From an uncultured Spirochaetaceae bacterium (GTDB taxonomy: Bacteria > Myxococcota_A > UBA9160 > UBA4427): DNA of 64,000 bases. Under the pieces are notes generated by a model. The model was not told the origin of the DNA, searched no databases, and was given only the letters and a program-made list of their open reading frames with translations. The first letter of the stretch is position 1; each line of letters starts with the position of its first letter. Shown here piece after piece: positions 5,440 through 60,867 of the stretch. The stretch spans positions 1,901 through 65,900 of the forward strand of contig CAZETS010000023.1 in NCBI GenBank assembly GCA_964515335.1, written 5' to 3'. The position numbers and the translations under genes were made by a program.

Positions 5440-5488
5440 CGGTTCGTTCGAGAGTTCCTCGGCGGGCGACCAGCGGAGACTCGTCCCC

Positions 5489-14139: not shown

Positions 14140-14148
14140 GCCTCCTGC

Positions 14149-23225: not shown

Positions 23226-23366
23226 GCGCACGCCTGTCGATTCTGCTCGAATCCCGGTAGGTTCGGGGGCACCCTTCGAGTGCTGCGTGTCGTCTCGCGC
23301 GGCCACTCGTCGTGGTCGGCGAGGCGGGCGGATCCCGCGCGGCGGGCGGGCGGAAGCGGAGGCGGC

Positions 23367-25064: not shown

Positions 25065-25106
25065 CCGGCCCTGGCCCGGCCTCGAGCGAGGCCCGATACT
25101 CGACGC

Positions 25107-35693: not shown

Positions 35694-37256
35694 ATGCACC
35701 GACGACGCGTCAACGCGGCGGGCACGGCGGGTCGGTTCGCCTACTTCGTTGCGGCGGTGGGCTTGCTGCTCGGTGTCGGGGCCGGCGCGGCGCGCGCTCA
35801 GGGGGCGGCGGGGCTCGAGGTGGGTCGCATCAGCGACCTCGACCTCGAGGCCGTGCGCGAAATCGTCGACGCCGCCGAGGCGGGCGCGTCGCTCGAGCCC
35901 GCGGAGCGGCGCGCGCTCTCGCTCGAAGCGGCGGTGAAGGTCGCGCTCGAGGAGAACCTCGGGCTGCAGATCTTCGCCCTCGACGTGGCCTCGAGCGAGC
36001 GGGAGATCGACGCGGCGCGCTCGAAGTTCCATCCCGTGGCCGGGCTGACCGGCGATGCATCGGGCACGAAGCGCGCCGAGAACGACCCGCTGGTCGAAGA
36101 CCAGACGAGCGATGCCCAGCAGGCCCGAGCTCTGGTGCGGCAGGAGGTCCCGACCGGCGGTGACGTCAGCGTGGGTGTCGGCTATGGCCGCGAGTTCAAG
36201 AACGAGCTGGTCACGCAGGTCGGTGGCGGCCGGTCGAACCTCGAGAACATCAGCGAGATCGCCGGCCTCGGCATCGAGATCAGGCAGCCGCTGCTGCGCG
36301 GGGGCCGCACCTACGTGGCGCGCCAGAAGATCCTGGATGCGCGCTACGACACGGAGATGCGCCGGGCCGAGCTGCGTGCGCGGGTCCTCGCCGTGACGGC
36401 AGAAACGAAAGGCGCCTACTACGCGGTGATCGGCGCACAGCGGCAGATCGAGGTGGTCGATCAGGCGCTGGTGCGCGACGAGGAGCTGATCCGCGCGTCG
36501 GCGGCGCTCTTCGAAGCGGGACGGGTGAGCAAGGTAGACCTGTTCAGCGCCGAGATCAGCCGCTCGAACGACCGCGCCCGGCTCGCCAGCGCGGTCGCCG
36601 ATCTGGAGGTCGCTCAGAACGGGCTGCGCAAGGTGATCGGGTTGCCTGCCCACGTGCAGGTCGACGCGACGGACACGACGATTCCGTTCCGCCCGATCCG
36701 CATCGATCTCCCGGGCTGGGTGGCGCGCGCGATGGACAGCCGGCCCGAGCTGATGGCGCTCGAGAGCCGGCTCGCCAAGGCCGAGCTCGCCGTGAAGGTC
36801 GGGCGCAACGCCAAGCTTCCGGGCCTCGAGGTGAGGGGCGGCTTCTTTCCCGGCTTCGACTGGAAGAGCTGGAACTACAACGCCGGCGTCAGCTTCGACT
36901 ACCCGATCGGCAACGTCGCCGCCGAGGCGCGGCACGATCAGGCGCGCCTCGATCGCGACAAGGTCCGGCACGAGATCGCCCGCACCCGCCGCGACATCGA
37001 GCTCGAGGTGCGCGAGATCGAGATCCGGCTGCGCGAGAACACGGAGCGCGTGAAGAACCTCACGGCTGCCGTCGCGAGCGCGAGGCAGAAGCGCGAGATT
37101 GCCCGCGGCCGCTTCGAGATGGGCCTGGCCAACAACCTCGACATCACCAACGCCGACGAGGAGTTGATCCGCGCGGAGAGCATGCTCCTGCAGGCGCTCG
37201 TCGACTACGCGACGAACGTCGCCGAGCTCGAGGCGCGCGTCGGCGGCGAGGTCTGA
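35694..37256 (+). CDS. TolC-family outer-membrane efflux protein
   Basis: Only the last 520 codons of the 1725-aa track ORF are credible, from in-frame ATG 35694 (MHRRRVNAAGTAGRFAYFVAAVGLLLGVGAGAARAQ). There are two OEP repeats: LSLEAAVKVALEENLGLQI...REIDAARSKFHP, and LRKVIGLP...RPELMALESRLAKAELAVKVGRNAKLPGLEV...FEMGLANNLDITNADEELIRAESMLLQALVDY. Confidence 0.87.
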   Translation: MHRRRVNAAGTAGRFAYFVAAVGLLLGVGAGAARAQGAAGLEVGRISDLDLEAVREIVDAAEAGASLEPAERRALSLEAAVKVALEENLGLQIFALDVASSEREIDAARSKFHPVAGLTGDASGTKRAENDPLVEDQTSDAQQARALVRQEVPTGGDVSVGVGYGREFKNELVTQVGGGRSNLENISEIAGLGIEIRQPLLRGGRTYVARQKILDARYDTEMRRAELRARVLAVTAETKGAYYAVIGAQRQIEVVDQALVRDEELIRASAALFEAGRVSKVDLFSAEISRSNDRARLASAVADLEVAQNGLRKVIGLPAHVQVDATDTTIPFRPIRIDLPGWVARAMDSRPELMALESRLAKAELAVKVGRNAKLPGLEVRGGFFPGFDWKSWNYNAGVSFDYPIGNVAAEARHDQARLDRDKVRHEIARTRRDIELEVREIEIRLRENTERVKNLTAAVASARQKREIARGRFEMGLANNLDITNADEELIRAESMLLQALVDYATNVAELEARVGGEV

Positions 37257-37271
37257 GCGCGCCGCCGGCGC

Positions 37272-37898
37272 TCAGCCCGCGTCGTCGTCGAGGTCGCGCA
37301 GCTGGGCGAGGCGGCGGGCGAAGCGCTGCAGCGCCGTGACCTGGGTCATCACCGCGACGAACCAGAGCACCCAGAACATCAGGTCGTAGCCGAAGATCGG
37401 CGGACAGAAGGGCGTCGCCACGAGGCCGATGCAGAGCGTGCCGATGCGCTCGAGCCGCTCGAAGAGGTCGGGCAGGCCGCCGCGGCCGTCGCCGTCGGCG
37501 CCGAGCATCGAGGCGCGCGCCGCCGCGTAGCTGGTGATGAGCGAGCCGGAGATGGCCACCGCGACCGGCAGCCAGTGGTCGGTCACGTAGCCGATCGCGA
37601 GCAGGATGAACACGTCCTTGTAGCGATCGGTGGTGGCGTCCAGGTAGGCGCCGCTCCGGCTGCTCTGGCCGGTCACGCGGGCCACCGCACCGTCGACGTT
37701 GTCGAGCAGCTCGACCACCGCCACCAGCAGTCCGTAAGCGATCAGGTTCCGGTGCAGCGTGAAGGCGAGGGCGTTGGTTGCCGACAGGGCGAACCCGATC
37801 CAGGTGACCGCGTTGGGCGTGAGGCCGGTGCGGGCGACCACGCGGCCGAGCGCGTCCCACCAGCGGTCCATCCGATCCTTGTAGAGCTCGTCGATCAT
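37272..37898 (-). CDS. CDP-alcohol phosphatidyltransferase-family membrane enzyme (short, PIP-synthase-like)
   Basis: 208 aa, polytopic. The motif D-x2-DG-x2-AR-x8-G-x3-D-x3-D is complete: LDNVDGAVARVTGQSSRSGAYLDATTDRYKD. The N-terminus reads RTGLTPNAVTWIGF. It starts 24 nt downstream of the GNAT gene on the same strand. Confidence 0.87.
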   Translation of the reverse strand: MIDELYKDRMDRWWDALGRVVARTGLTPNAVTWIGFALSATNALAFTLHRNLIAYGLLVAVVELLDNVDGAVARVTGQSSRSGAYLDATTDRYKDVFILLAIGYVTDHWLPVAVAISGSLITSYAAARASMLGADGDGRGGLPDLFERLERIGTLCIGLVATPFCPPIFGYDLMFWVLWFVAVMTQVTALQRFARRLAQLRDLDDDAG

Positions 37899-37922
37899 CG
37901 GTGGCGCGATCCCCGGGGTCGA

Positions 37923-39110
37923 TCAGTAGCGGTCGGTGTGCCACATGAACGGATGGCAGCGCGGGAAGACGACGTCGAGCAGGGCGATGTCCTCGGCGCC
38001 CGGCGGCGTCGTCTGCCAGCCGGCTTCGCCGGCGAGCACCTCCGAGGCCGCGCGGTAGCCCATCGCGAGCTGCAGCAGCGCACCGGGCGAGAGCACGAGG
38101 TCGACCTTGCGTGTGTTCCCGGCGGCGCCGTTCAGCAGCACGCGCGTTCGCTCGCCGCCGCTCTCGACGCCGAGGTCGAGGGCGACCTGGCCGCTCGTCG
38201 AACCGCGCAGTCGCTCGCCGAGGGAGTCGGTCAGCCGGCCGAGCAGGCGCAGCGGGGCGAGCGGCATGCCGAGGCAGCCCGAGCGCTTCGAGTAGGTGGT
38301 CGTCAGCGTGGCGCCGTGTGGGGTGGCGGCGGCTACGAACGGGTGGTCGGCGGGTACGGCGCCGCAGATGCGCCGCAGGTTCGCCTCACGGGCGAGCTCG
38401 CCGAGCTTGCGCACGGCCGCGGCGTGGAAGGCGGGGCCGGCGCCCGCGACCTCGCGGATCTCGAGCCGGTCGTCGAAGAAGGTGACGCCCACGTAGCCGT
38501 CGTCGCAGAGGTACATCCGTTCGGGTCTGCGCACGAGCCACGGCCAGAGCGCCTCGCTCCGCACCAACGGGCCGCTGCCGTGACGATTGCTCTCGTTGTA
38601 GCAACGGATCAGCGTGGGCAGGTCGGCGTCGATGGACGGCCGGAAGGGGTCGTCCTGGAGCCGCGGGATGGCGCGCGCGTCGAGCTCGAGCATGTAGTCG
38701 GCGCAGAGCGGCACGCCGCCGAGCCGCGTGTAGAAGCCTCCGCGCTGCGCAAAGCCGAAGACCATGTCGAAGCCCTCGTTGCGCACCTCGCCGATGGCGT
38801 GCTCGGCGATCAGGCGCGCGTAGCCCTTGTGGTTGGCGTCCGGCTCGGCGACCACACCCTGGATGCCGGCCGTCCGCACCGGCGTGCCCGCCACCCACAT
38901 CTCGAAGTCGAGCATCTGCCACTTGGCGACGATGCGTCCTTCCTCCTCGGCGACCCAGCACAGCTCGGGCGGCATGAAGGGGCAGGTCTCGTAGGCGGCG
39001 CGCATCAGGGCCCGCAACGGGGCCACCTCGTCGGCCTTGCCGAAGACGCGGGCGGTGAGATCCGCGACCGCGTCGATCTCTTCCCTCTCGAGGCGGCGCA
39101 CGACCGTCAT
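37923..39110 (-). CDS. GNAT-family N-acyl/acetyltransferase with a C-terminal SCP2-like domain (Eis-like architecture)
   Basis: The start is taken at Met13 of the track ORF (MTVVRRLEREEIDAVADLTARVFG). GNAT core: VAEEEGRIVAKWQMLDFEMWVAGTPVRTAGIQGVVAEPDANHKGYARLIAEHAIGEVRNEGFDMVFGFAQRGGFYTRLG. A long C-terminal part is consistent with Eis/COG4552-type proteins. Confidence 0.72.
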   Translation of the reverse strand: MTVVRRLEREEIDAVADLTARVFGKADEVAPLRALMRAAYETCPFMPPELCWVAEEEGRIVAKWQMLDFEMWVAGTPVRTAGIQGVVAEPDANHKGYARLIAEHAIGEVRNEGFDMVFGFAQRGGFYTRLGGVPLCADYMLELDARAIPRLQDDPFRPSIDADLPTLIRCYNESNRHGSGPLVRSEALWPWLVRRPERMYLCDDGYVGVTFFDDRLEIREVAGAGPAFHAAAVRKLGELAREANLRRICGAVPADHPFVAAATPHGATLTTTYSKRSGCLGMPLAPLRLLGRLTDSLGERLRGSTSGQVALDLGVESGGERTRVLLNGAAGNTRKVDLVLSPGALLQLAMGYRAASEVLAGEAGWQTTPPGAEDIALLDVVFPRCHPFMWHTDRY

Positions 39111-39325
39111 GGCGGCAGAGGTTACCGGCGGGTGCGGGCCGCGCACCCGAGCGCGACCTCAGGCCGTTCCCCCTGGGCGATCTGGCTGGGCGCCGATCAG
39201 CCATGCTAGGGTCGGCGCCGGCGTCCCCCTGCCGCGCCGAATCACCGATCAGCCCCGTCCTCCGCGGGTCCGACCCGCCCCGTCGCCGGCCCACCAGCGG
39301 CCGAGAGCGACGTGCGAGGAGCTTC
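39111..39325. promoter_or_regulatory. Divergent promoter region of the putative phosphonolipid locus
   Basis: 215-bp spacer between the GNAT (-) and GT4 (+) starts. It contains the 10-nt direct repeat CCGATCAGCC at 39193-39202 and 39245-39254. GAGGAG lies 4 nt before ATG 39326. Confidence 0.4.
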
Positions 39326-40465
39326 ATGCACGTTGGCATCGTGGCGGAGTACTACCGGCCGTGGCCCGGCGGTATCTCCGAGCACGTCCATCATCAGGCC
39401 GAAGAGCTCGAACGGCGCGGTCACGCGGTCACGATCCTCACGGGGCCGGCGCCGCCCGACTGGAGCGACGCCGGACGAACGGTCGAACGGCTCGGCTTCG
39501 GGTACGAGTTCACGAGCAACGGCGCCCTGTCGCGGCTGGTGCTCGGCAGCTATCTGCTCCACTTCCGGGGGCTCCTGCGCCGGCACGACTTCGACGTGAT
39601 CCACGTGCATGCGCCGATGGATCCGTTCCTGCCGCTCGGTGCGGTGTACGCCGCCGAGTGCCCGGTGGTCGGCACGTTCCACGCGAACTTCGACCAGGGC
39701 CCGCTCTGGAATTTCCTGTATCGCTGGCTGCGGCCGCTCACCGCACCAGCCTGGGAGCGCCTCGCGGCGCGCATCGCGGTGGCCGACGAGGCGCGGCGCA
39801 GCATCGGTCGCTACTTCGAGGGCGACGTCGTGATCGTGCCCAACGGCGTCGACACGGAGCGCTTCAGGCCGGATGCCGAGCCCCTTCCGGCGCTGTCGGA
39901 GGACCGCCGTCGCATTCTCTTCGTCGGCCGTCCCGATCCGCGAAAGGGCCTGCCGCTGCTGCTCGAGGCGTTTCCCGAGGTGCGCCGGCGGGTGCCCGGT
40001 GCCGAGCTGGTGGTGGTGGGCGTGCGCGAGGAAGAGGTGCCGGAGCCGCTCGCGGCGCTCGATCGTATCGACCCCGATGCCCGGGCCGACGTCCGCTTCG
40101 AGGGCTACGCGGCGCCCGAGGACATGCCGCGCTACTACGCGAGCTGCGACGTCTTCTGCTCGCCGGCCACCGGGCAGGAGAGTCAGGGCATCGTGCTGCT
40201 CGAGGCGATGGCGGCCGGTCGCACGCCGGTCGCCTTCGCGATTCCGGGCTATCGAGACGTCGTGTCGCACGGCGTCGACGGCTGGCTGGTCGACGACGTG
40301 TCCGCCGCGGCGCTCGGAGACGGTCTGGCCGGCCTGCTCGCCGATCGGGACGCGCTCGCGCGCATCGGCGAGGCGGGGCGCAAGACGGCGCTCGGCTACT
40401 CGTGGCCGAGCGTGGTCGAGCGAGTCGACGCGATCTACAGCCAGGTCTGCGAGCGCGCGGGCTGA
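39326..40465 (+). CDS. GT4-family (GT-B) glycosyltransferase, PimA-like
   Basis: Met42 of track ORF 39203. MHVGIVAEYYRPWPGGISEHVHHQAEELERRGHAVTILTG, DFDVIHVHAP, VVGTFHANF, VIVPNGVDTERF, ILFVGRPDPRKGLPLLLEAF. E-x7-E region: GQESQGIVLLEAMAAGRTPVA. Confidence 0.87.
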   Translation: MHVGIVAEYYRPWPGGISEHVHHQAEELERRGHAVTILTGPAPPDWSDAGRTVERLGFGYEFTSNGALSRLVLGSYLLHFRGLLRRHDFDVIHVHAPMDPFLPLGAVYAAECPVVGTFHANFDQGPLWNFLYRWLRPLTAPAWERLAARIAVADEARRSIGRYFEGDVVIVPNGVDTERFRPDAEPLPALSEDRRRILFVGRPDPRKGLPLLLEAFPEVRRRVPGAELVVVGVREEEVPEPLAALDRIDPDARADVRFEGYAAPEDMPRYYASCDVFCSPATGQESQGIVLLEAMAAGRTPVAFAIPGYRDVVSHGVDGWLVDDVSAAALGDGLAGLLADRDALARIGEAGRKTALGYSWPSVVERVDAIYSQVCERAG

Positions 40466-40590
40466 ACGGCCCGCAGCTATCCTCTGGAGCGGCCGGCGCC
40501 CGGCTTCGCCGCATCGACCGCCGCCCGCTCCGGAGGGGGAGCGCCCGCACCCGGCTCGCCCGGGGCGGGCGGGAGAAGGACGGAACGAGC

Positions 40591-42201
40591 ATGACCCAGA
40601 CGAACTCGAAGAAGCTTCGCGATCTGCTCCAGAGCCCGCGGGTCGAGCAGATCCTCGAGGCCCACAACGCGCTGTCGGCCACGATCGTCGAGGAGGCCGG
40701 CGTTCCGGGGCTGTGGGCCAGCTCGCTCACGCTCTCGTGCGCGGCGGGCATGCGCGACAACAGCGAGCTGACGATGACCGAGGTGCTCGACGTGCTCGAG
40801 TCGATCACCGCGAAGGTCGGGATCCCGATCCTCTTCGACGGCGACACCGGCTACGGACAGTTCAGCCACTTCCAGCAGCTGGTCCGCAAGCTCTGCCTGC
40901 GGCAGGTCGGAGGCGTCTGCATCGAGGACAAGGTCTTCCCCAAGACGAACTCCTTCCTGCGCAGCGAGTCCCAGGACCTCGCGCCCGTCGAGGAGTTCGC
41001 GGGCAAGATCCGCGCGGGCAAGGACGCCCAGACCGACGAAGATTTCGTGATCGCCGCCCGCACCGAGTCGCTGATCGTGGGACTCGACATGTCCGAGGCC
41101 CTCGACCGCGCCGAGCGCTACGTCGAGGCGGGCGCCGACGCGATCCTGATCCACTCGAAAGTGCGGACCTTCTCGCAGGTGCGCGAGTTCATGTCGCGCT
41201 GGGAGCGTCCGACGCCCGTCATCTGTGTGCCGACCACCTACTACAGCACGCCGATCGACGCCTTCCAGCAAGCCGGCGTTTCGCTGGTGATCTGGGCCAA
41301 CCACATGCTGCGCGCGGCGATCGGAGCCATGCAGGGCGTCGCCCGGGAGATCGGCGAGAAGGGCACCGCGCGCGATCTCGAGGACACCATCGCTTCCGTC
41401 AAGGAGGTGTTCCGCCTGCAGGACGCGGACGGTCTGCTCGAGGGCGAGCGGCTCTATCTCGCCCAGGGCAGCGCCTGCTCGGCGGTGATCCTGGCGGCGA
41501 GCCGCGGTGCGGGGATGGACCAGCTCACCAGAGACAAGCCGAAGTGCATGATCGAGGTGAACGGCATGCCGGCGATCGAGCGCATGCTGCAGAGCATGCG
41601 GGCCGAAGGCATCAAGGACATCTCGGTCGTGCGCGGCTACAAGCCCGAGGCGCTCGCGCCGGCCGGCGCATCGTTCTTCGACAGCCCGCGCTGGGAGGAG
41701 ACCGGCGAGCTCGGGTCGCTCGAGGCCGCGCGGAGCGCCCTCAAGGGCGAGGTCCTGATCGCCTACGGGGACGTCGTCTTCAAGCGCTACATCCTGCACG
41801 AGCTGCTCTCGTCGGACGCGCCGATCACGATCGTCGTCGACGGCACGCGCTCGATCGTCGAGTCGGGCCGGGTCGGCGACCGCGTCAAGGTGAGCGCACC
41901 GGCCCCCGAGCGCTGGGACGAGCAGGAGTACACGCTCGAGCGGATGGCGGCCGACCTGCCCGACGAAGCAACCGACGGCGAGTGGATCGGCATGTTGCGC
42001 GCCAGACCCGAGGGCACCGAGTGGCTGCTCTCGGCCCTCGACGCCGTGCTGGCCGAGCCCGATCACGAGCGCCTCGACATGAGCGCCGTCTTCGAGCGGG
42101 TGCTGGCCGAGCATCCCGGTTCGGTGGGCGTCGTCTACGTCTCCGGCGATTGGATCGACATCAACGACCTCGCGGACGTGGCCCGCAGCGGCGGCGTCTG
42201 A
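40591..42201 (+). CDS. pepM: Phosphoenolpyruvate mutase fused to a C-terminal nucleotidyltransferase-like domain
   Basis: In-frame ATG 40591 (GGGAGAAGGA upstream) inside track ORF 39037..42201. The PepM-diagnostic EDK-X5-NS box IEDKVFPKTNSF lies at 40924-40953. Isocitrate-lyase-fold blocks: LEAHNALSA, ILFDGDTGYG, ADAILIHSK. From about residue 296 (about 41476) there is an NTP-transferase-like fold: SAVILAASRGAGMDQLTRDKPKCMIEVNGMPAIERML. Confidence 0.9.
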   Translation: MTQTNSKKLRDLLQSPRVEQILEAHNALSATIVEEAGVPGLWASSLTLSCAAGMRDNSELTMTEVLDVLESITAKVGIPILFDGDTGYGQFSHFQQLVRKLCLRQVGGVCIEDKVFPKTNSFLRSESQDLAPVEEFAGKIRAGKDAQTDEDFVIAARTESLIVGLDMSEALDRAERYVEAGADAILIHSKVRTFSQVREFMSRWERPTPVICVPTTYYSTPIDAFQQAGVSLVIWANHMLRAAIGAMQGVAREIGEKGTARDLEDTIASVKEVFRLQDADGLLEGERLYLAQGSACSAVILAASRGAGMDQLTRDKPKCMIEVNGMPAIERMLQSMRAEGIKDISVVRGYKPEALAPAGASFFDSPRWEETGELGSLEAARSALKGEVLIAYGDVVFKRYILHELLSSDAPITIVVDGTRSIVESGRVGDRVKVSAPAPERWDEQEYTLERMAADLPDEATDGEWIGMLRARPEGTEWLLSALDAVLAEPDHERLDMSAVFERVLAEHPGSVGVVYVSGDWIDINDLADVARSGGV

Positions 42202-42241
42202 GTCCGCCGCTCGAGGCCGTGAAGAAGGGAGCGCATCGGTC

Positions 42242-43411
42242 GTGACGCTCGACCCCCGACTTCTGTTCAGCGCGCTGCGCGCCGCGGGCATCCGCTCGTT
42301 CGCCGGCGTGCCGTGCTCGATCCTCACCGATCTGGTCCTCGCCGCCGAGGCGTCGGACGACGTCGACTACGTGGCGGCGTCGGTCGAGGGCGAGGCGGTT
42401 TCGGTCGCGGCCGGCAGCTGGCTGGCGGGCGGCCTCGGCGCGGCATTGATGCAGAACTCGGGGCTCGGCAACGCCGTCAACCCACTGGCCTCGCTGTGCC
42501 TGCCCTACGAGATTCCGGCGCTGCTGATCGTGTCGTGGCGTGGCGAGCCCGGGCGCAAGGACGCCGTCCACCACGCGCCGATGGGCGCGGCGACGCCCGG
42601 CCTGCTCGAGCTGTTCGGCGTGCCGGTGACCGTGCTCCGCGAGGACTCGGACGTCGAACAGTGCGTGGCGGACGCCGCGCGCTACATGCAGAAGGAGCGC
42701 AAGCCCGCCGCGCTGATCACTCCGCGCGGGCTCTTCGCGAAGTCGCAGGGGAACGCCTCGCGCCCGCCGCCGGTGCTAGCCGGGCGAACGCCGACGAGCG
42801 GCGCCGCCGCGCAGCGCTTCGAGGGCGGCGCGCTGCCGAGCCGCAGCGAGCTGCTCGACGCCTGGTTGGCGCGATTCCCCGAGGCCCCGGCGGTCTCGAC
42901 CACCGGCTACATGTCGCGCGAGGTCTCCGCGCACGGGTCCTTCGATCGCCACTTCCCCATGCAGGGCTCGATGGGATTCGCTTCCGCGATCGCGCTGGGC
43001 GTGGCGCGCACGCGCCCCGAGTCGGCGGTTCACGTGCTCGACGGGGACGGCGCGCTGATCATGCGCATGGGCTCGCTCGCCACGATCGGCGCGTGCGCGC
43101 CCGCGCAGCTCGTTCACGTGGTGGTCGACAACGGCACCTACGCGTCGACGGGCGGGCAGCTCACGGTCTCGCCCGGGGTCGACTTCGCGCGCGCCGCGCT
43201 CGCCTGCGGCTACGCGGCCGCCGCCTCGTGCCGGGGCGGGGACGCGCTCGACGACGCGCTCGCGTTCGTGGCGGACGCGGCCGGCTCGGGGCCGGTCCTG
43301 CTGCACGTGGCGGTCGACGAGCGCGAGGCCGAGGGGCTCGAGCGGCCGAAGCTCTCGCCGCAGGAGATCGCCGCGGCCTTCCGGGCCGGTCGAGGGGGTG
43401 TCCCGGCATGA
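42242..43411 (+). CDS. ppd: Phosphonopyruvate decarboxylase (TPP-dependent)
   Basis: 389 aa. FAGVPCSILTDL...ASVEGEAVSVAAGSWLAGG..ALMQNSGLGNAVNPLASL...PALLIVSWRGEPG. C-terminal TPP motif: VLDGDGALIMRMGSLATIGACAPAQLVHVVVDNGTYASTGGQ. It sits directly after the PEP mutase gene, which is the canonical gene order. Confidence 0.88.
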   Translation: MTLDPRLLFSALRAAGIRSFAGVPCSILTDLVLAAEASDDVDYVAASVEGEAVSVAAGSWLAGGLGAALMQNSGLGNAVNPLASLCLPYEIPALLIVSWRGEPGRKDAVHHAPMGAATPGLLELFGVPVTVLREDSDVEQCVADAARYMQKERKPAALITPRGLFAKSQGNASRPPPVLAGRTPTSGAAAQRFEGGALPSRSELLDAWLARFPEAPAVSTTGYMSREVSAHGSFDRHFPMQGSMGFASAIALGVARTRPESAVHVLDGDGALIMRMGSLATIGACAPAQLVHVVVDNGTYASTGGQLTVSPGVDFARAALACGYAAAASCRGGDALDDALAFVADAAGSGPVLLHVAVDEREAEGLERPKLSPQEIAAAFRAGRGGVPA

Positions 43412-44193
43412 GCGCCACTCCGCGGGCCGCGATCATCCTGGCGGCCGGGATGGGGACCCGGCTTCGTGACATGTTCTCCGACCTGCCGAAGGGCTTCGTC
43501 GAAATCGGCGGCGAGTCGTTGATCGACCGCTCGCTTCGCCTGCTCGGCGATCACGGCGTCGAGCGGGTGGTGATCGTGGCCGGCCACCTCGGCGAGACCT
43601 ATCACGAGCTCGCGAAGTCGCGGCCGGGCGTCGAGGTCGTCGACAATCCCGCCTTCGCGACGACCGGCAGCATGGCGTCGCTCGCGCGTGCGCTCGAGAT
43701 CGTCGACGAGGACCACTTGCTGCTCGAGAGCGACCTCTTCTACGAGGAGCGTGCGCTGCAGCGCGTGCTCGCCTGCGAGGAGCGCGACGTGCTGCTCGTC
43801 TCGAGCCCCACCGGCGCGACCGACGAGGTGTGGGTCGAGGCGGCAAACGATGGTCGCCTCGTCGACATGTCGAAGGCGGAGAACGAGCTCGACCACATCT
43901 CGGGCGAGCTGGTCGGCATCGTCAAGGTGTCGGCCGATGTGGGGCGGGCGCTCTCGGGCGCCTACGAGGGCTTCGTCTCGCGCCACGGCCACGGCCGTAT
44001 GGCCTACGAGATGGACGCTCTCGTCGAGGTGGCGCGCGAGCACCCGGTGCGCGTCGAGCTGGTGCCGGATCTGCTCTGGGGCGAGGTCGACTACGAGCGG
44101 CACTACGTGCGGGTGCGCGACGAGGTGTACCCCGCCTGGCGGCGCCGGGGTGTGGACGGCGAAGACGTCGAAACGGAGGCCATCGAGGCATGA
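43408..44193 (+). CDS. LicC/PntC-type nucleotidyltransferase (predicted 2-aminoethylphosphonate cytidylyltransferase)
   Basis: In-frame ATG 43408 inside track ORF 42313. ATGA overlap with the ppd stop. Canonical loop AAIILAAGMGTRLRDMFSDLPKGFVEIGG. VIVAGHLGE, NPAFATTGSMASL, LLLESDLFY. 261 aa. Confidence 0.8.
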   Translation: MSATPRAAIILAAGMGTRLRDMFSDLPKGFVEIGGESLIDRSLRLLGDHGVERVVIVAGHLGETYHELAKSRPGVEVVDNPAFATTGSMASLARALEIVDEDHLLLESDLFYEERALQRVLACEERDVLLVSSPTGATDEVWVEAANDGRLVDMSKAENELDHISGELVGIVKVSADVGRALSGAYEGFVSRHGHGRMAYEMDALVEVAREHPVRVELVPDLLWGEVDYERHYVRVRDEVYPAWRRRGVDGEDVETEAIEA

Positions 44194-45308
44194 GCATGGG
44201 CGAGACGGTCGAGCGCAGGATCCTGCTGAACCCGGGGCCGGCCACCACGAGCGACGGCGTCAAGCAGGCGCTGGTGATCCCCGACATCTGTCCGCGCGAG
44301 CGTTCTTTCTGCGATCTCTACGCCGACGTGCGCCGGCGGCTGGCCGAGCTGGTGGGCGATCCCGCCGAGGTCGCTGCGGTTCCGCTCGTCGGCTGCGGCA
44401 CCACCGCCCTCGAGGCCGCGATGGTGAGCCTGCTGCCGCCCGGCGCCCGGCTGCTCGTCGTGGACAACGGCGACTACGGGACCCGGCTCGCAGCGATGGC
44501 CCGCGAGCTGGGCATCGACCACGACGTGCTCGAGGTGGGTTGGGCGGTGCCGATCGACCCGGCCGAAGTCGAGGCGAAGCTCGGCGACGCCTCGACCCCG
44601 TTCACCCATGCCTACTTCGTCCACCACGAGACCAGCTCGGGTCTGCTGAACCCGATCGACCCGCTGCTCGCGGTGTTCAAGCGTCACGACGTGCGGGTGC
44701 TGCTCGACGCGATGTCGAGCTTCGCGTGCCTGCCGACGCCGGTCGGCGCGGAGGGCGTCGACGCGGTGGTGTCGAGCTCGAACAAGTGCGTGCAAGGCAT
44801 GGCGGGGCTCGGCATCGTGGTGGCGACCCGCGCGTTGCTCGACGAGGCGCGCGGCACGCGGCGGCGCTGTTTCAGCCTCGATCTCGTCGCCGAGCTCGAC
44901 CACCTCGAGAAGACGGGGCAGAGCCGCTTCACGGTGCCGCCGCAGGTGGTGTCGGCGCTGCACCGGGCGCTGATCGAGTTGGAGCGCGAGGGGCTCGACG
45001 GCCGCCGCGCGCGCTACACGCGCAGCATGGAGGTGTTGGTTTCGGGGCTGCGCAGGCTCGGCTTCGAGTTGTTCGAGGGCGACGGCGAGCCGAGCCGCAT
45101 CCTGGTGGCGATTCGCGCCCCCGAAGCGCCCTGGTACGACTTCGAGGACATGCACGACGCGCTCTTCGAACAGGGCTTCACGATCTATCCCGGCAAGCCC
45201 GGAGCGGTGCCGACCTTCCGCTTGGCCGTTCTCGGCGCGATCGACGCCAGCGACATCGAGGCGTTCCTCGAGGCGCTCGAGCAGTATCTGTCGCGGGCGA
45301 GGCGCTGA
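44190..45308 (+). CDS. phnW: 2-aminoethylphosphonate:pyruvate aminotransferase (class V PLP enzyme, PhnW/AepZ type)
   Basis: Met121 of track ORF 43830. ATGA overlap with the upstream stop. From memory it is collinear with PhnW: ILLNPGPATTS, VHHETSSGLLNPID, LLDAMSSF, the PLP-lysine block VVSSSNKCVQGMAGLG, CFSLDL, RFTVPPQVV, GFTIYPGK. Confidence 0.88.
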   Translation: MSMGETVERRILLNPGPATTSDGVKQALVIPDICPRERSFCDLYADVRRRLAELVGDPAEVAAVPLVGCGTTALEAAMVSLLPPGARLLVVDNGDYGTRLAAMARELGIDHDVLEVGWAVPIDPAEVEAKLGDASTPFTHAYFVHHETSSGLLNPIDPLLAVFKRHDVRVLLDAMSSFACLPTPVGAEGVDAVVSSSNKCVQGMAGLGIVVATRALLDEARGTRRRCFSLDLVAELDHLEKTGQSRFTVPPQVVSALHRALIELEREGLDGRRARYTRSMEVLVSGLRRLGFELFEGDGEPSRILVAIRAPEAPWYDFEDMHDALFEQGFTIYPGKPGAVPTFRLAVLGAIDASDIEAFLEALEQYLSRARR

Positions 45309-45333
45309 GTCCGAGCGGCGCGCGGGAAGACGT

Positions 45334-46239
45334 GTGAAGGAAGAGATCGCCGTCCGGCTGCTCTACACGCTGAGCGCCATCTTCGCCGTGGCGGCGCTCG
45401 GCCTGCTGGTGAGCTTCGCGATGCGCGGTCGCACGACTGCCCAGAGTCAGATGGGCACGCGCTTCGGCCTCGAGGTGCTGTTCCTGGCCGCGATCTTCGT
45501 GCCCACGTATCTCGGGGGCGCGTGGGTGCTGGCGACGGCGGTGCTGCTGGGCTGTCTCTGCGCGAGTGAGTTGTACGGCACGTTCGAGTTCGGAGGCGAC
45601 ACGCCCTGGAAGCTTTCGGGCATCCTGATCGGGCTCGGCTTCGTGTTCTACGCCTACGTTCGGCCCGACGGCGTCGCCCCGATCTTCCCATGGGTGCTTG
45701 CGCTCTACTGGGGGCTGCGCTTCGCCGCGGGTGGCGGCAAGACGGGCCTGCTGGCGCGCAGCAGACGGACGACGTTCGGCATCCTGTACCCCTTCATGTG
45801 CCTCGCCTTCTTCGTCGACCTCGGCGTGCGTGAGGAGGGCTTCGGCTACGTGGTGCTCTACTACGGGCTCGCCGAAGTGAACGACTCGGCGGCATACCTG
45901 GTAGGGTCGAGCATCGGCCGCCACAAGATCTTCCCGAAGCTCAGTCCGAAGAAGACCGTCGAGGGGGTGGCCGGAGGCATCCTCGCGACCCTGGGAATCG
46001 CGTTCGCCCTGAGCTTCGCGGTGCCCGAGTGGGGCGGCTGGCGGCTGGCGGGGGCCGGGGTGCTGATCGCGGTGGCGGGGCTGGCGGGCGACCTCTTCGC
46101 TTCGCGCCTCAAGCGGCGGGTCGGCGTGAAGGACTACGGCGAGGCCGTGCCCACCCAGGGCGGCGTACTCGACGTCTACGACGCCTTCATCTTCGTGGCG
46201 CCGGTCTTCTACTATTACGTGCAGCTCACGGGCGGCTAG
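45334..46239 (+). CDS. CdsA-family (CTP_transf_1) integral-membrane cytidylyltransferase with a divergent signature
   Basis: 301 aa, GTG start with GGGAAGA upstream; about 8 TM helices. SPKKTVEGVAGG, then GDLFASRLKRRVGVKDYGEAVPTQGGVLDVYDA. This matches the CdsA signature S-x-[LIVMF]-K-R-x4-K-D...H-G-G-x-x-D-R except for Q in place of H and V in place of R. Confidence 0.8.
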   Translation: MKEEIAVRLLYTLSAIFAVAALGLLVSFAMRGRTTAQSQMGTRFGLEVLFLAAIFVPTYLGGAWVLATAVLLGCLCASELYGTFEFGGDTPWKLSGILIGLGFVFYAYVRPDGVAPIFPWVLALYWGLRFAAGGGKTGLLARSRRTTFGILYPFMCLAFFVDLGVREEGFGYVVLYYGLAEVNDSAAYLVGSSIGRHKIFPKLSPKKTVEGVAGGILATLGIAFALSFAVPEWGGWRLAGAGVLIAVAGLAGDLFASRLKRRVGVKDYGEAVPTQGGVLDVYDAFIFVAPVFYYYVQLTGG

Positions 46240-46300
46240 GCGAGGCCGGCCGGGGGCGGGGGGAACGGTCATCTCCGATACCACGCGGCGACGCTTCACC

Positions 46301-47038
46301 GTGGCTGACGTTCGCGCGTCGTTTCCGCCCGAGAAGGCGTGGAGCGAGATGCAGGGCGACCTGATCTGCTTTCTCGTCTACCGGCAGATCTCCTTCTACG
46401 TGACGCCGCCCCTGCTGCGCCTGGGCGTGCCCGTGCTCGGCGTGACCTGCTTTGCGCTGCTGGTCGCGCTTGCCATGGTGACGATCGCGTGGCTGGGCGG
46501 GCCGTCGGTCTGGTGGGCGGTGGCCGCCATCGGCTTCGCCTACCACGTGCTCGACTGCGTGGACGGCAACATGGCGCGCACCCTGGGGCAGACGAGCCGC
46601 CTCGGCGCGATCCTCGACGGCACCGTCGACATGGGCTTCTGGTGCGGGCTGCTGTTCTCGCTGGGGCTGCTGGTGGATCACGCGGGCGGCGGCCTGTTCG
46701 GCGAGCACGCCGTGGCGTTCTCGCTGGGCCTCTGCGTGCTGCTGCTGCTGAACCGCCAGACCCGCGACAACTTCGCGGTGCAGAACGCGACGGCCACCTA
46801 CTTCAAGCCCTCGCGGCCGGAGCGGATCCCGCTCGGCGACTGGCTGATGATGGCCGTCACCGGCCTGGAGTTCGCCTACGTGTTCGTCATCGCCCTGGCC
46901 GGAGCCCTCGACGCCCTCGACTGGGCGCTCGCCGGCATCGGGGCCTACGTGGCGGTGATCTTCGTCGGCGCCCTGTGGATGACCTTCGCCAAGGCGGCCG
47001 AGCTGGACCGGGCTACTTCTTCGTCCGACCCTCGTTGA
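46301..47038 (+). CDS. CDP-alcohol phosphotransferase-family membrane enzyme
   Basis: 245 aa, GTG start; an alternative ATG lies 16 codons downstream. Polytopic. The motif is complete at 46562-46630: LDCVDGNMARTLGQTSRLGAILDGTVD (D-x2-DG-x2-AR-x8-G-x3-D-x3-D). It is the last gene of the pepM operon, and its 3' end overlaps the convergent FGGY kinase gene by 26 nt. Confidence 0.82.
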   Translation: MADVRASFPPEKAWSEMQGDLICFLVYRQISFYVTPPLLRLGVPVLGVTCFALLVALAMVTIAWLGGPSVWWAVAAIGFAYHVLDCVDGNMARTLGQTSRLGAILDGTVDMGFWCGLLFSLGLLVDHAGGGLFGEHAVAFSLGLCVLLLLNRQTRDNFAVQNATATYFKPSRPERIPLGDWLMMAVTGLEFAYVFVIALAGALDALDWALAGIGAYVAVIFVGALWMTFAKAAELDRATSSSDPR

Positions 47039-48569
47039 GGCGGCGGAACCAGGAGTGCGTCCGGTCGTAGTAGTCGCGGTAGGCCGCGTAGCGCTCGTCG
47101 TAGAGTGACGCGTAGGCGGCGCGGGGCTCGAACCGGTCGGTGACCTCTACGAGGTGTCCGGTGTCCTCGAGGCGCGGGATCTCGCCGAGGGCGCGCAGCG
47201 CGATCACCGCAGCGCCGCGCACGCCACAGAACTGCGGATTGGCCACGCGGTGGACCGGGCGCTGCAGCACGTCGGCGGTGATCTGGCACCAGATGTCGCT
47301 CTGGGCGCCGCCGCCGGTGATGCGCACGTGGGGCACCGGCTCCTTCAGCAGCTTCTCGACCACGCCGAAGGCCCAGCGCGTGTTGAGCGCCACGCCCTCG
47401 TAGATGGCGCGGAGCACGTGGCTCTTGTCGTGGTCGAGCGAGAGGTTCACGAAGCCGCCTCGCACCGACGAGTCGTCGACCGGAACGCGCTCGCCCATCA
47501 TCCACGGGAAGAACGTCACCCCGCCGGCGCCGGGCGGGCAGTCCTCGACGAGCGCGTTGATCTCGTCGTAGCCGATGTGCTCGCCGAGCAGATTGCGCCG
47601 CAGCCACTCCATCGAGGCGCCGGCCGTCTCCTGCGTGGCGATCAGGATGTACTTGCCGAGCTCGGCGGCGCAGAGGGTCCCGGTCGCGGAGAAGGGGTCG
47701 ACGCAGCGGTCGTCCCGATGCGACGCCACCCAGGAGCTGGTGCCGAGGCAGACGTGCACCTCTCCGTCGCGTACGGCGCCCGAGCCGATCGCGCACGACG
47801 GCACGTCGCCCGCGCCCGCGACGACCGGCGTGCCCGGCGCGATGCCGAGGTCGGCGGCGGCGTCCTCCTGCAGGAAGCCGGCGACCTCGGTCGAGCGGAT
47901 CACCGTCGGCAGCCGCGAGGTGTCGAGGTCGAGCATGTCGAGGATCGGCTCGGACCAGCCGAGCTGGTCCTTGCGGGTGCGGAAGAGCCAGCCGCCGCTC
48001 GCCAGGTCGTAGGTGGTGACCGTGCGGCCCGTCGAGCGCAGCAGCAGGTAGTCCTTCACGTCCAGCAGCTTGTGGGTGCGCTCCCAGACGTCGGGGCGCT
48101 CCTCGCGCAGCCAGATGTACTTCGAGATCGTGTCGCGGCCGGCCAGGTTCGGCGCGCCGTTGGTCTCGCGCAGCCACTTGATGACTCGGCCCAGCCCGTA
48201 GCCCGCGACCTTCGGGAAGCCGTCGGTGATGGCCCGGGCCTGCTCGCGCGAGCGGGTGTCGAGCCAGATCATCGCGTTCATCAGCGGCTTGCCGTCGACG
48301 TCGACGGGCAGCACGCCGAACATCTGGCACGAGAAGACCATTCCGCTCACGGTGTCGCGCCGCTCGGGGGCGTTCTTCCAGAGGTCGCGCACCGCCGAGG
48401 CGATCGCGTGCCACCAGCCGTTCGGGTCCTGCTCGGCCCAGGTCGGCCGGGGATGGAGCACCTCGAGGTGGCTGCGCGCGCAGTCGCGGATGACACCCTC
48501 GTGCGAGACCAGGGCGGCCTTCACCTCCGAGGTGCCCACGTCCACCGCCAGGATGTTCCGCTCGGTCAT
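47013..48569 (-). CDS. FGGY-family carbohydrate kinase (xylulokinase-like)
   Basis: 518 aa: ILAVDVGTSEVKAALV...HPRPTWAEQDPNGWWHAI, NAMIWLDTRS, VVAGAGDVPSCAIGSG, ITGGGAQSDIWCQITADVL. Confidence 0.87.
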   Translation of the reverse strand: MTERNILAVDVGTSEVKAALVSHEGVIRDCARSHLEVLHPRPTWAEQDPNGWWHAIASAVRDLWKNAPERRDTVSGMVFSCQMFGVLPVDVDGKPLMNAMIWLDTRSREQARAITDGFPKVAGYGLGRVIKWLRETNGAPNLAGRDTISKYIWLREERPDVWERTHKLLDVKDYLLLRSTGRTVTTYDLASGGWLFRTRKDQLGWSEPILDMLDLDTSRLPTVIRSTEVAGFLQEDAAADLGIAPGTPVVAGAGDVPSCAIGSGAVRDGEVHVCLGTSSWVASHRDDRCVDPFSATGTLCAAELGKYILIATQETAGASMEWLRRNLLGEHIGYDEINALVEDCPPGAGGVTFFPWMMGERVPVDDSSVRGGFVNLSLDHDKSHVLRAIYEGVALNTRWAFGVVEKLLKEPVPHVRITGGGAQSDIWCQITADVLQRPVHRVANPQFCGVRGAAVIALRALGEIPRLEDTGHLVEVTDRFEPRAAYASLYDERYAAYRDYYDRTHSWFRRLNEGRTKK

Positions 48570-48743
48570 GCTGGTCTTCCCTCGACGGGATGCCGGCCGC
48601 GTCGTCGAGCACGGCCGGGGACGGACGGCGATGAGGCCACCGGGTCCGGCTGCATGGCAGGGGGAGGCGCGACCGACCGTAGCCGAGCGCCCGGGTGCTC
48701 GAAATACCGTCAGCCGCTGCTCGGCGCCAAATCGAAGGGATTG

Positions 48744-48766
48744 GCCCCCGCATTCCCAAGGGGGGC
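48744..48766 (-). terminator. Possible intrinsic terminator after the ABC ATPase gene
   Basis: On the minus strand, 12 nt after the stop: a 6-bp G/C stem (GCCCCC / GGGGGC) with an 11-nt loop, followed by CAATCCCTTCGATTTGG, which is only partly T-rich. Confidence 0.3.
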
Positions 48767-48777
48767 GCGGGAGGTCC

Positions 48778-49470
48778 TCAGACGGCGATACGCCTGTCCG
48801 AGTCGATCCGGCCGTCTACGAGGTTGATCAAGCGGTCCGCCGATTCGAACACCCGGGCGTCCTGCGTGACCATCAGCACGGTCGTGCCGCGCTCTCTCGC
48901 GAGTCTCCCGAACAGTCCGAGCACGATCTCTGTGTTGGCTGCGTCGAGCGCAGCGGTGGGCTCGTCGGCGAGCACGAGGGCCGGCCGGTGGATCAGCGCC
49001 CGTGCGATCGCCACGCGCTGGCGCTGGCCGCCGGAGAGCTTCTCGGGCCGGTAGTCCTGCCGTTCGCCGAGGCCGAGCTCGGTCAGCAGGGCGGCGATGC
49101 GCTCGGTCTTGTCGGCGTCCGGGTCCGGATGCAGGTCGGCCGCCATCTGCACGCTCTCGAAGGCGGTCAGTGCCGGAAAGAGGTTGTGCAGCTGGAAGAT
49201 GAAGCCGAGGTGCGTGCGGTACTCCTCGAGTCCGATGCCGCGCAGCTTGCGCAGATCGTGACCCACCGAGATCAGCCGGCCGCTCTGCGGACTGCGCAGC
49301 GCACCGATCAGCGAGAGCAGGGTGGTCTTCCCCGAGCCGGACGGCCCGGTCATGATCACGAATTCGCCGGGAGCCACCTCGAGCTCGATGTCGAACAGCA
49401 CCTGCTTGCGCGCCTCGGCATCGCCGAAAGCGTGGTCGAGGTCGCGGATCTCGATCGCGGGCTCGCTCAC
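48778..49470 (-). CDS. ABC transporter ATP-binding protein (DevA / LolD / MacB-ATPase type)
   Basis: 230 aa. Walker A GPSGSGKTT, Q-loop FIFQ, signature LSGGQRQRVAIARAL, Walker B LVLADEPTAALD, H-loop MVTQD. Confidence 0.9.
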   Translation of the reverse strand: MSEPAIEIRDLDHAFGDAEARKQVLFDIELEVAPGEFVIMTGPSGSGKTTLLSLIGALRSPQSGRLISVGHDLRKLRGIGLEEYRTHLGFIFQLHNLFPALTAFESVQMAADLHPDPDADKTERIAALLTELGLGERQDYRPEKLSGGQRQRVAIARALIHRPALVLADEPTAALDAANTEIVLGLFGRLARERGTTVLMVTQDARVFESADRLINLVDGRIDSDRRIAV

Positions 49471-49477
49471 CGGCCCC

Positions 49478-60856: not shown

Positions 60857-60867
60857 GGCCCGGCCCC

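Follow-up and report, generated by a model that had tools for sequence, protein, structure and literature searches.

A modular locus of Myxococcota type proposed to build and export a membrane lipid carrying 2-aminoethylphosphonate

The window analysed here, a 64-kb stretch of contig CAZETS010000023.1 with a G+C content of about 71%, contains genes for the synthesis and CMP activation of 2-aminoethylphosphonate (AEP) located among genes of lipid-assembly families. All coordinates refer to this window, and loci labelled L with a number are the related genomic contigs that were compared with it. An earlier note on this DNA had described nine genes at 37272-47038 as one dedicated pathway for an AEP membrane lipid. 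An open reading frame (ORF) check of the window recovered all nine at the coordinates given there, together with the ATGA stop/start overlaps at 43408-43411 and 44190-44193, and profile searches with Pfam and NCBIfam confirmed every family call. The divergent spacer (39111-39325) was 215 bp long as described, provided that the gene of the GNAT acyltransferase starts at the ATG at 39110. The boundaries had to be moved, however, because comparison with about 25 related loci revealed a larger conserved unit. Its order was a TolC-like outer-membrane efflux protein (OEP; 35694-37256), the CDP-alcohol phosphotransferase CAPT1, the GNAT, the divergent spacer, a GT4 glycosyltransferase, the phosphonate genes PepM-NTP, Ppd, PntC and PhnW, a CdsA-like enzyme and a second CDP-alcohol phosphotransferase, CAPT2, followed by a convergent part with an FGGY kinase (47013-48569), DevA (48778-49470), two FtsX/DevC genes and DevB (49478-50506). 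Within this order, the GNAT, GT4, PhnW, CAPT2 and the FtsX/DevC genes were the parts that varied between genomes. The flanks were also syntenic, with an esterase gene upstream and an Amidohydro_3 gene downstream. The gene order was kept in more than 15 species-level genomes, which showed that the arrangement was not due to chance.

The related loci also revealed that the unit was built of two kinds of parts. The TolC-like protein, CAPT1, the CdsA-like enzyme, the FGGY kinase and the DevA/DevB-type ABC exporter formed a constant core, which occurred in some genomes without any phosphonate genes, whereas PepM/Ppd/PhnW, PntC, CAPT2, GT4 and GNAT were variable add-ons. Of the nine genes of the earlier note, GT4, GNAT, PhnW and even CAPT2 proved to be variable accessories. 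Homologues of CAPT2, the CdsA-like enzyme and CAPT1 came almost all from marine metagenomes and from metagenome-assembled genomes (MAGs) labelled Myxococcota or Deltaproteobacteria. Four MAGs (those of L018, L021, L161 and L166) were labelled “uncultured Spirochaetaceae/Spirochaetales” despite a clearly Myxococcota-type syntenic locus, and these labels are probably wrong.

The phosphonate block lay on the plus strand. Its first gene (40591..42201) encoded a phosphoenolpyruvate (PEP) mutase fused to a MobA-like nucleotidyltransferase domain, with PEP_mutase and NTP_transf_3 matches and a score of 353.8 bits with TIGR02320 (cut-off 319.55). The diagnostic EDK-x5-NS motif was present as EDKVFPKTNS at 40924-40953, where the earlier note had placed it, and the next model, phosphonopyruvate hydrolase, reached only 200 bits against its cut-off of 374, which identifies the enzyme as a true mutase and not as another member of the isocitrate-lyase family. 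The NTP_transf_3 domain covered residues 298-416 and was 24% identical to the PntC of the window; a fused nucleotidyltransferase is found in about 60% of Ppm enzymes, and a fusion of the present type in about 33% (PMC6697681). The adjacent gene (42242..43411) encoded the phosphonopyruvate decarboxylase Ppd (TIGR03297, 346.4 bits, cut-off 312.5), so that the coupled downstream enzyme for the unfavourable PEP mutase equilibrium was present. The product of the third gene (43408..44193), a PntC-type AEP cytidylyltransferase, aligned over residues 7-242 to PDB 6pd1, the PntC domain of Tde1415 of Treponema denticola, with an E-value of 1.5e-43. The catalytic residues R15 and K25 of the Treponema enzyme, which were mutated in the study of that protein, corresponded to R18 and K28 of the window protein. 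The alignment to 6pd1 also showed that one Glu in “LLLESD” and one in “AYE” were conserved, which we take to be the two Glu residues of Tde-PntC that contact the amine of AEP.

The fourth gene of the block (44190..45308) encoded an AEP transaminase of the biosynthetic PhnW/AepZ type, which scored 363.9 bits with TIGR03301 (cut-off 360.8) and 303.8 bits with the PhnW model TIGR02326, under the cut-off of 400.8. This gene was variable and was missing from L012, L018 and L021. With the equivalog scores and the 6pd1 match together, the stand-alone nucleotidyltransferase appears as a clear PntC homologue, and the predicted synthesis of AEP followed by CMP activation, as the earlier note had proposed, is well founded. 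Catabolism of AEP was ruled out as a function of these genes, because phnX, phnA, phnY and phnZ were lacking, PepM and Ppd were present and the transaminase fitted the biosynthetic AepZ-type model. No LicD, nonribosomal peptide synthetase/polyketide synthase, C-P lyase or phnX domain was detected among the scanned ORFs of the window, in agreement with the earlier description.

Three enzymes of the base module are predicted to act in lipid assembly. The first, CAPT1 (37272..37898, minus strand, 208 aa), matched PF01066 with 44 bits and carried the complete D-x2-DG-x2-AR-x8-G-x3-D-x3-D motif, and it shared GQ[ST]SR-x-GA-x-LD-x-T-x-D with CAPT2; both motif statements of the earlier note were thus borne out. 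Its best models were phosphatidylinositol-phosphate (PIP) synthase (94.7 bits, cut-off 170) and archaetidylinositol-phosphate synthase (137.8 bits, cut-off 180), so that CAPT1 stayed below the cut-offs of both equivalog models tested (NF045883 and NF040950); CAPT2 scored 33 and 38.6. The best PDB match of CAPT1 was PgsA1 of Mycobacterium tuberculosis (6h53, E-value 2.6e-14), and the counterparts of PgsA1 residues R94, S132, R137, R152, R155 and R195 were invariant across the family. In 14 diverse members, taken from the locus configurations A, B and C described below and from distant phyla, the acceptor-phosphate pocket residues R92, S123, R148, R151 and R192 of CAPT1 did not vary. In PgsA1 and the PIP synthase (PIPS) of Renibacterium salmoninarum, inositol phosphate is held by its phosphate group through R94, S132, the RxxR pair R152/R155 and R195, and R94 is a marker of the enzymes that use this substrate (PMC6506517, PMC4634129). 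Since CAPT1 kept every phosphate-binding residue of the PIP synthases, its probable substrates are a CDP-lipid and a phosphorylated alcohol, presumably CDP-diacylglycerol and the phosphate of a sugar or polyol. Its gene was linked to an FGGY kinase and not to an inositol-phosphate synthase, which makes a phosphorylated sugar or polyol other than inositol phosphate the probable acceptor.

The FGGY-family kinase (47013..48569, minus strand), an invariant part of the base module, carried FGGY_N and FGGY_C domains and was xylulokinase-like, with 338 bits for the XylB model (cut-off 380) and an E-value of 1.7e-51 to the xylulokinase structure 5vm1. This kinase would be the obvious source of the phosphorylated acceptor of CAPT1. 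An FGGY gene adjoined a CdsA-like or CAPT1-like gene in Myxococcota and Vicinamibacteria (L076, L174, L175), in a betaproteobacterial MAG (L026), in a MAG labelled “proteobacterium” (L038) and in three metagenome contigs (L253, L271 and L275), and the CdsA-like, FGGY and CAPT genes recurred together in Vicinamibacteria. The third enzyme, a divergent CdsA-family membrane cytidylyltransferase (45334..46239, plus strand), was likewise invariant in the base module. It matched PF01148 (CTP_transf_1) with 158 bits, but it scored only 73.6 bits with the CdsA equivalog (cut-off 385), and it aligned to CdsA of Thermotoga maritima (TmCdsA, 4q2g) at residues 147-298 only, which correspond to the C-terminal half. 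Its clade invariantly had QGG/DVYD where TmCdsA has HGG/DRID and was discrete, with scores falling from 256 bits to about 184, 150 and then about 100 bits. Because neither the equivalog cut-off nor the canonical signature was reached, the protein was considered a member of the CdsA family and not an orthologue of CdsA. Both Asp residues of the catalytic dyad of TmCdsA are presumably retained, according to our own mapping onto the TmCdsA numbering; together with the altered signature, this suggests an active cytidylyltransferase with a possibly changed lipid specificity.

Two further loci showed related arrangements of these base genes. At 10001-13028 of L239, genes for a CAPT1-like protein, an aminotransferase, a CdsA-like enzyme and PgpA (phosphatidylglycerophosphatase A) stood together among glycosyltransferase genes, which would fit a phosphatidyl-X-phosphate intermediate that loses its phosphate before a sugar is added. 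In a Vicinamibacteria MAG (L076, 4006-14293), the CdsA-like gene overlapped the FGGY kinase gene by 4 bp, and the surroundings contained a Stealth gene, an AMP-binding enzyme, a CAPT, a GT2, an MsbA-type ABC exporter and a PP-binding/aminotransferase fusion resembling serine palmitoyltransferase. This locus may represent a sphingolipid-type variant of the same module.

CAPT2 (46301..47038, plus strand) was a deeply divergent six-helix CDP-alcohol phosphotransferase, which matched PF01066 with 37 bits, had a length of 229-245 aa and carried the complete CAPT motif. The conserved N-terminal “VRxSYxxEKAW” supported the GTG start at 46301. An AlphaFold2 model (pLDDT 89.7) showed a six-helix core that superposed on AF2299 and PIPS, consistent with a class I CAPT. 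Foldseek gave TM values of 0.71 for AF2299, 0.66-0.69 for PIPS, 0.39 for CEPT1 and 0.35 for CHPT1. An assignment of the donor and acceptor of CAPT2 by fold was rejected, because the values for AF2299 and PIPS were too close to discriminate. The family profile was also nearest to AF2299 (E-value 2e-8), with DIPP synthase among its matches, and of the PIPS pocket residues only the invariant RxxR was kept. An exhaustive search gave 121 representatives of the family at E<=1e-30. The two CAPTs had been described as paralogues, but they were not close: likeness was confined to the surroundings of the motif (46% identity over 46 residues).

The gene neighbourhoods pointed to the donor. Every clade locus with CAPT2 had PntC, including L001, L010 and L237, which lacked PepM and Ppd, and CAPT2-like genes with a DCVDGN motif adjoined PepM, Ppd or PntC in unrelated arrangements (L266, L278, L297, L301/302, L307 and L311). 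Since CAPT2 never occurred without PntC and its relatives stood beside pepM elsewhere, CAPT2 is likely to be a user of CMP-AEP, as the earlier note had suggested for a CAPT of this locus. Other CAPT2-like genes lay beside Stealth proteins and glycosyltransferases, with no phosphonate genes. One of the arrangements with phosphonate genes was a compact operon on a 43% G+C metagenome contig (L302, 6732-12343), which consisted of PntC-like, CAPT2-like and PepM-NTP genes, a two-subunit (split) Ppd and an Fe-alcohol dehydrogenase and held no other lipid genes. The dehydrogenase implies that 2-hydroxyethylphosphonate, and not AEP, would be the head group in that organism.

In a plain Kennedy-like route, as the earlier note had it, a CAPT would transfer aminoethylphosphonyl from CMP-AEP straight to diacylglycerol to give diacylglyceryl-AEP, the phosphonate analogue of phosphatidylethanolamine. 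AEP has no hydroxyl group and can therefore enter a lipid only as an activated donor, which suits this route, as do the constant pairing of CAPT2 with PntC and the compact L302 operon. The figure of the Burkholderia/Nostoc cluster, as far as its pathway abbreviations (CMP, diacylglycerol (DAG), hydroxy-AEP) show, is consistent with it as well (PMC5987646). However, the six-helix CAPTs have been tied to soluble acceptors, and the choline/ethanolamine phosphotransferases that use diacylglycerol have 3 or 4 extra helices (PMC4634129). Both CAPTs of the window (208-245 aa) had the six-helix architecture, and CAPT2 resembled CEPT1 and CHPT1 far less than AF2299, which argues against a simple diacylglycerol acceptor; the full inositol-phosphate-type pocket of CAPT1 points the same way. 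In addition, nothing in the direct reaction would call for the CdsA-like enzyme, the FGGY kinase or CAPT1, although the phosphonate genes sit between them, and these three form a module that is found without phosphonate genes (L075/L162). It also does not account for GT4, which tracked CAPT2. Bare diacylglycerol is thus the less likely acceptor of CAPT2, and we consider the Kennedy-like route as a whole unlikely.

The accessory enzymes and the exporter completed the unit. The Eis-like GNAT acyltransferase (37923..39110, minus strand; Acetyltransf_9, 68.8 bits), which has an alternative GTG start at 39146, gave weak PDB matches (4my0 and 3n7z). It was paired with CAPT1 in many loci and was missing from L013-L016, L001, L010 and L075. 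The GT4 glycosyltransferase (39326..40465, plus strand) matched Glycos_transf_1 with 115.9 bits and Glyco_transf_4 with 94.2 bits; it reached no NCBIfam equivalog cut-off, its weak matches included MshA and lipid glycosyltransferases, and its gene was restricted to loci that also had CAPT2. The TolC-family OEP (35694..37256, plus strand) had a signal-peptide-like N-terminus and scored 117 bits with TIGR01844, below the cut-off; almost every related locus had its gene beside CAPT1, as did L075, which has no phosphonate genes. The DevA-family ABC exporter ATPase (48778..49470, minus strand) scored 283.9 bits with TIGR02982, slightly under the cut-off of 295.8 (next best LolD, 189 bits), and the DevB-family membrane-fusion protein (49478..50506, minus strand) scored 178.6 bits with TIGR02971 (cut-off 129). 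In most relatives (L004, L009, L013-L017 and L075), two FtsX/DevC permease genes separated DevA from DevB, whereas they were missing in the window and in its closest relatives, L001 and L011; in the window the two genes were 7 bp apart and both looked intact. The Anabaena system DevBCA-TolC (HgdD), a MacB-type tripartite pump, has been linked to the formation of the heterocyst glycolipid layer (PMC6161253). The window resembles it in having DevA-/DevB-family and TolC-like genes near lipid-synthesis genes and differs in the DevA score, the lack of DevC genes, the organism and the cargo.

An AEP conjugate that is not a lipid (a phosphonoglycan, a teichoic-acid-like surface polymer or a soluble phosphodiester made in the manner of DIPP synthase), exported by the ABC system, would suit several of these observations. 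The nearest relative of CAPT2 was AF2299, with DIPP synthase among the matches, and neither processes lipids; six-helix CAPTs take soluble acceptors; and CAPT1-like and CAPT2-like genes in other phyla stood beside Stealth hexose-phosphate transferases and glycosyltransferases. The characterised bacterial AEP conjugates are also mostly glycans (PMC6697681, PMC8931226). Domain scans, however, found no Stealth, Wzx/Wzy, polyprenyl-phosphate glycosyltransferase or LicD gene in the window. The invariant partners of the unit were a CdsA-family lipid cytidylyltransferase and a CAPT of the PIP-synthase type, and the DevBCA-TolC pump exports heterocyst glycolipids. With these points against it, a non-lipid product, although the main alternative, appears rather improbable.

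Comparison of the clade loci revealed four natural configurations. Configuration A contained only the base genes (OEP, CAPT1, CdsA-like, FGGY, DevA, FtsX, FtsX and DevB) and was seen in a complete 6.25-Mb Myxococcota chromosome (OZ252299.1; L075/L162), between the same flanking genes as the phosphonate loci. This chromosome belongs to the searched collection, and the scans for PepM and for the CAPT2 motif gave no match in it. The same configuration and the same flanking genes were seen in L161, a short contig whose sequence stops at DevA. Configuration B (L166, L167 and UWMA-0336) added PepM-NTP, Ppd, PntC and PhnW without CAPT2 or GT4, and the gap from the CdsA-like gene to FGGY was 90-136 bp. 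Between base-only, phosphonate-without-CAPT2 and full loci, the pocket residues of CAPT1 showed no difference that would account for the use of CMP-AEP where CAPT2 is lacking. Configuration C, which occurred in at least 13 species-level loci, had the complete set seen in the window, with GT4, GNAT and PhnW as optional parts. Configuration D (L001, from TMED88, L010 and L237) combined the base with GT4, PntC and CAPT2 and lacked PepM and Ppd; L010 (cluster2_bin.176) retained PhnW, and L237 had a PhyH oxygenase gene and a Stealth gene. L001 and L010 were close relatives of the window, and their MAGs gave no match in the PepM scan. Masked sequence was rejected as the cause of the missing PepM and Ppd genes, because these loci had no N runs and their genes were contiguous. 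Loci of this kind might draw on scavenged AEP or use phosphoethanolamine instead, or the missing genes may lie in another part of the incomplete MAGs. Among the clade loci, PepM always occurred with PntC. The clade thus provides a natural dissection of the locus into base only, phosphonate genes without CAPT2, PntC with CAPT2 and GT4 but without PepM, and everything together.

These configurations bear on whether one system or two were present. The lipid-export module (OEP, CAPT1, CdsA-like, FGGY and DevAB) and a phosphonate module whose product is used elsewhere could simply be neighbours, since each occurs alone: L075 and L161 had only the base, and L302 had only the phosphonate operon with a CAPT2-like gene. 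Within the clade, however, the phosphonate genes were always inserted between CAPT1 and the CdsA-like gene, inside the base module, and CAPT2 lay between the CdsA-like gene and FGGY. Even in the rearranged loci L020, L021 and L256 the parts were kept together. Two separate systems are therefore the reading to which we give very little weight.

Taken together, the locus is proposed to be a modular island for the synthesis and export of a specialised membrane (glyco)phospholipid that bears AEP, a reading for which we see about equal chances of being right or wrong. The FGGY kinase would phosphorylate a sugar or polyol, the CdsA-like enzyme would make a CDP-activated lipid, most simply CDP-diacylglycerol, and CAPT1 would join the two products to a phosphatidyl-X-phosphate lipid. 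At the level of homology, PepM is predicted to convert PEP to phosphonopyruvate, Ppd to convert phosphonopyruvate to phosphonoacetaldehyde, PhnW/AepZ to convert the latter to AEP, and PntC to form CMP-AEP from AEP and CTP. With CMP-AEP as its donor, CAPT2 would then place the aminoethylphosphonyl group on a hydroxyl, either in the lipid head group itself or in a sugar that GT4 has attached, and the GNAT may N-acylate an amine. By analogy with DevBCA-TolC, the DevA/DevB-type ABC pump and the TolC-like duct would carry the product towards the outer membrane.

Several observations weigh against this proposal. The steps after CMP-AEP have no precedent in bacteria, and the CdsA-like enzyme departs from the CdsA signature by substitutions. 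Stealth sugar-phosphate transferases were encoded in related loci of other phyla, a hint of glycan-type products. Several distant CAPT2 homologues (P0046, P0051, P0053, P0054 and P0056; loci of the L020/L002, L007 and L053 types) had Gly in place of the fourth Asp of the CAPT motif, which is the proposed catalytic base. L166, L167 and UWMA-0336 had PepM, Ppd, PntC and PhnW yet no CAPT2, which implied that CAPT2 was not strictly required. Finally, no FtsX (DevC) gene was found anywhere in the window, so that the DevBCA exporter was not complete there.

In the loci of the homologues lacking the fourth Asp, CAPT2 headed a DevBCA operon and followed a cytoplasmic sulfatase-family gene. The “Sulfatase” gene beside CAPT2 in L002 and L007 was considered as a head-group transferase of the EptA/LtaS type and was rejected, because the protein had neither a transmembrane segment nor a signal peptide.

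The earlier note took the combination of genes to be experimentally uncharacterised in bacteria, but the general concept is already in print. Li & Horsman 2022 (PMC8942020) describe “Burkholderiales_CDP-OH” families, which are equivalent to the phosphonolipids of Group 1 in Yu et al. 2013. This class made up 36% of the RefSeq ppm neighbourhoods analysed, the largest share, with a seven-gene core of a Ppm-PntC fusion, Ppd, AEP transaminase (AEPT), a 2-oxoglutarate (2OG) oxygenase, a second PntC and two phospholipid genes, and the authors stated that no phosphonolipid of these families had been characterised (PMC8942020). A Nostoc genome paper shows a cluster of CAPT, NTPT, pepM, ppd and AEPT genes with a homologous Burkholderia cluster and a proposed pathway, whose abbreviations also include alkyl-acylglycerol (PMC5987646). 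In the literature searched, no paper was found that characterised a bacterial phosphonolipid synthase or an enzyme that moves an activated phosphonate to its final acceptor. The window shares with these clusters the Ppm-nucleotidyltransferase fusion, Ppd, the AEP transaminase, a stand-alone PntC, a CDP-alcohol phosphatidyltransferase and the prediction of a cell-envelope phosphonolipid. It differs in the 2OG/Fe(II) oxygenase, which leads to 1-hydroxy-AEP in those clusters: no oxygenase gene was present in 35694-50506, so that the window does not have the seven-gene core.

The nearest PhyH-family gene (26030-26896) lay 11 kb upstream of the locus, as the last of three consecutive genes (23226-26896) for a metallophosphoesterase, a D-2-hydroxyacid dehydrogenase and a PhyH-family 2OG dioxygenase. 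Its product was only 29% identical to the PntC-adjacent PhyH of L237, which makes a link to AEP hydroxylation unlikely, and its role as an AEP hydroxylase of the locus was regarded as unsupported.

The sole Burkholderiales-type example examined, L098 of Hydrogenophaga, had no CdsA-like, FGGY kinase, second CAPT or DevBCA/TolC genes, and protein searches from CAPT2 and the CdsA-like enzyme of the window returned no Burkholderia matches. With a different gene set in L098 and no such matches, the locus was not assigned to the Burkholderia cluster family. In that MAG (Hydrogenophaga intermedia, L098 3795-17124), the CAPT, 2OG-oxygenase, PntC, PepM-NTP, Ppd and PhnW genes lay among squalene/phytoene synthase, PNP_UDP_1 and radical-SAM DUF3463 genes of hopanoid type, a context that hints at a link between phosphonates and hopanoids.

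The Pnt pathway, known from Tde1415 of T. denticola (PDB 6pd1/6pd2) and from Atopobium rimae, resembles the window in having a homologous PntC with the same catalytic residues. The transaminase is fused to PntC in Tde1415, whereas the two genes were adjacent and translationally coupled in the window. Where PntC has been characterised, its gene has LicD-like phosphotransferases or glycosyltransferases in the neighbourhood, which point to glycans, whereas the candidate transferase in the window is a CAPT membrane enzyme. CAPT1 shares with the PIP synthases of M. tuberculosis and R. salmoninarum the six-helix class, the CAPT motif, the phosphate-binding Arg/Ser residues and neighbours of the GT4 and acyltransferase types, as in the mycobacterial arrangement PgsA1-PimA-acyltransferase, and it differs in its equivalog scores and in its kinase neighbour. 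Ciliates have a CMP-AEP-dependent phosphonolipid synthesis, and this and the Kennedy enzymes CEPT1/CHPT1 are similar to the predicted CAPT2 step in that a CMP-activated head group is moved by an enzyme with the CAPT motif. CEPT1 and CHPT1, however, have about ten helices, in contrast to six in CAPT2, and they aligned with it only around the motif.

Further from the locus, the window contained genes for a protein of about 1250 aa with many TPR repeats and a C-terminal sulfatase domain (5288-9049), followed by a patatin-like phospholipase (9174-10118), a GDSL lipase (13042-14148) and an autotransporter with PATR passenger repeats and a C-terminal beta-barrel domain (57773-60910), adjoining a TPR protein. 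Promoter and terminator scans gave no more hits than in shuffled sequence, and the Rfam scan gave no match.

About half of the bacterial pepM clusters are thought to yield cell-surface phosphonolipids or phosphonoglycans (PMC6697681, PMC8942020). The concept that pepM, PntC and a CAPT lead to a phosphonolipid is already published as a prediction, and the window is a new architectural variant of it. The natural variation in its modules draws attention to CAPT2, a candidate for the phosphonyl transferase that is still missing. More tentatively, and with the balance leaning against it, the six-helix enzymes of CAPT2 type may be the missing bacterial transferases that move aminoethyl- or hydroxyethylphosphonyl from a CMP-phosphonate to a membrane lipid or glycolipid, here decorating an undescribed phosphatidyl-sugar or phosphatidyl-polyol lipid that would be made by the kinase, CdsA-like and PIPS-like enzymes and exported by a pump of DevBCA-TolC type. 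If this is true, the product would be a new class of exported phosphono-glycerolipid. The kinase/CdsA-like/PIPS-like trio would represent a recurrent and so far unrecognised lipid pathway, which is also present in other phyla. Because phosphonate head groups withstand phospholipases and phosphatases, an exported AEP lipid could matter for the envelope stability of marine, possibly predatory, Myxococcota and also for the marine phosphonate pool.

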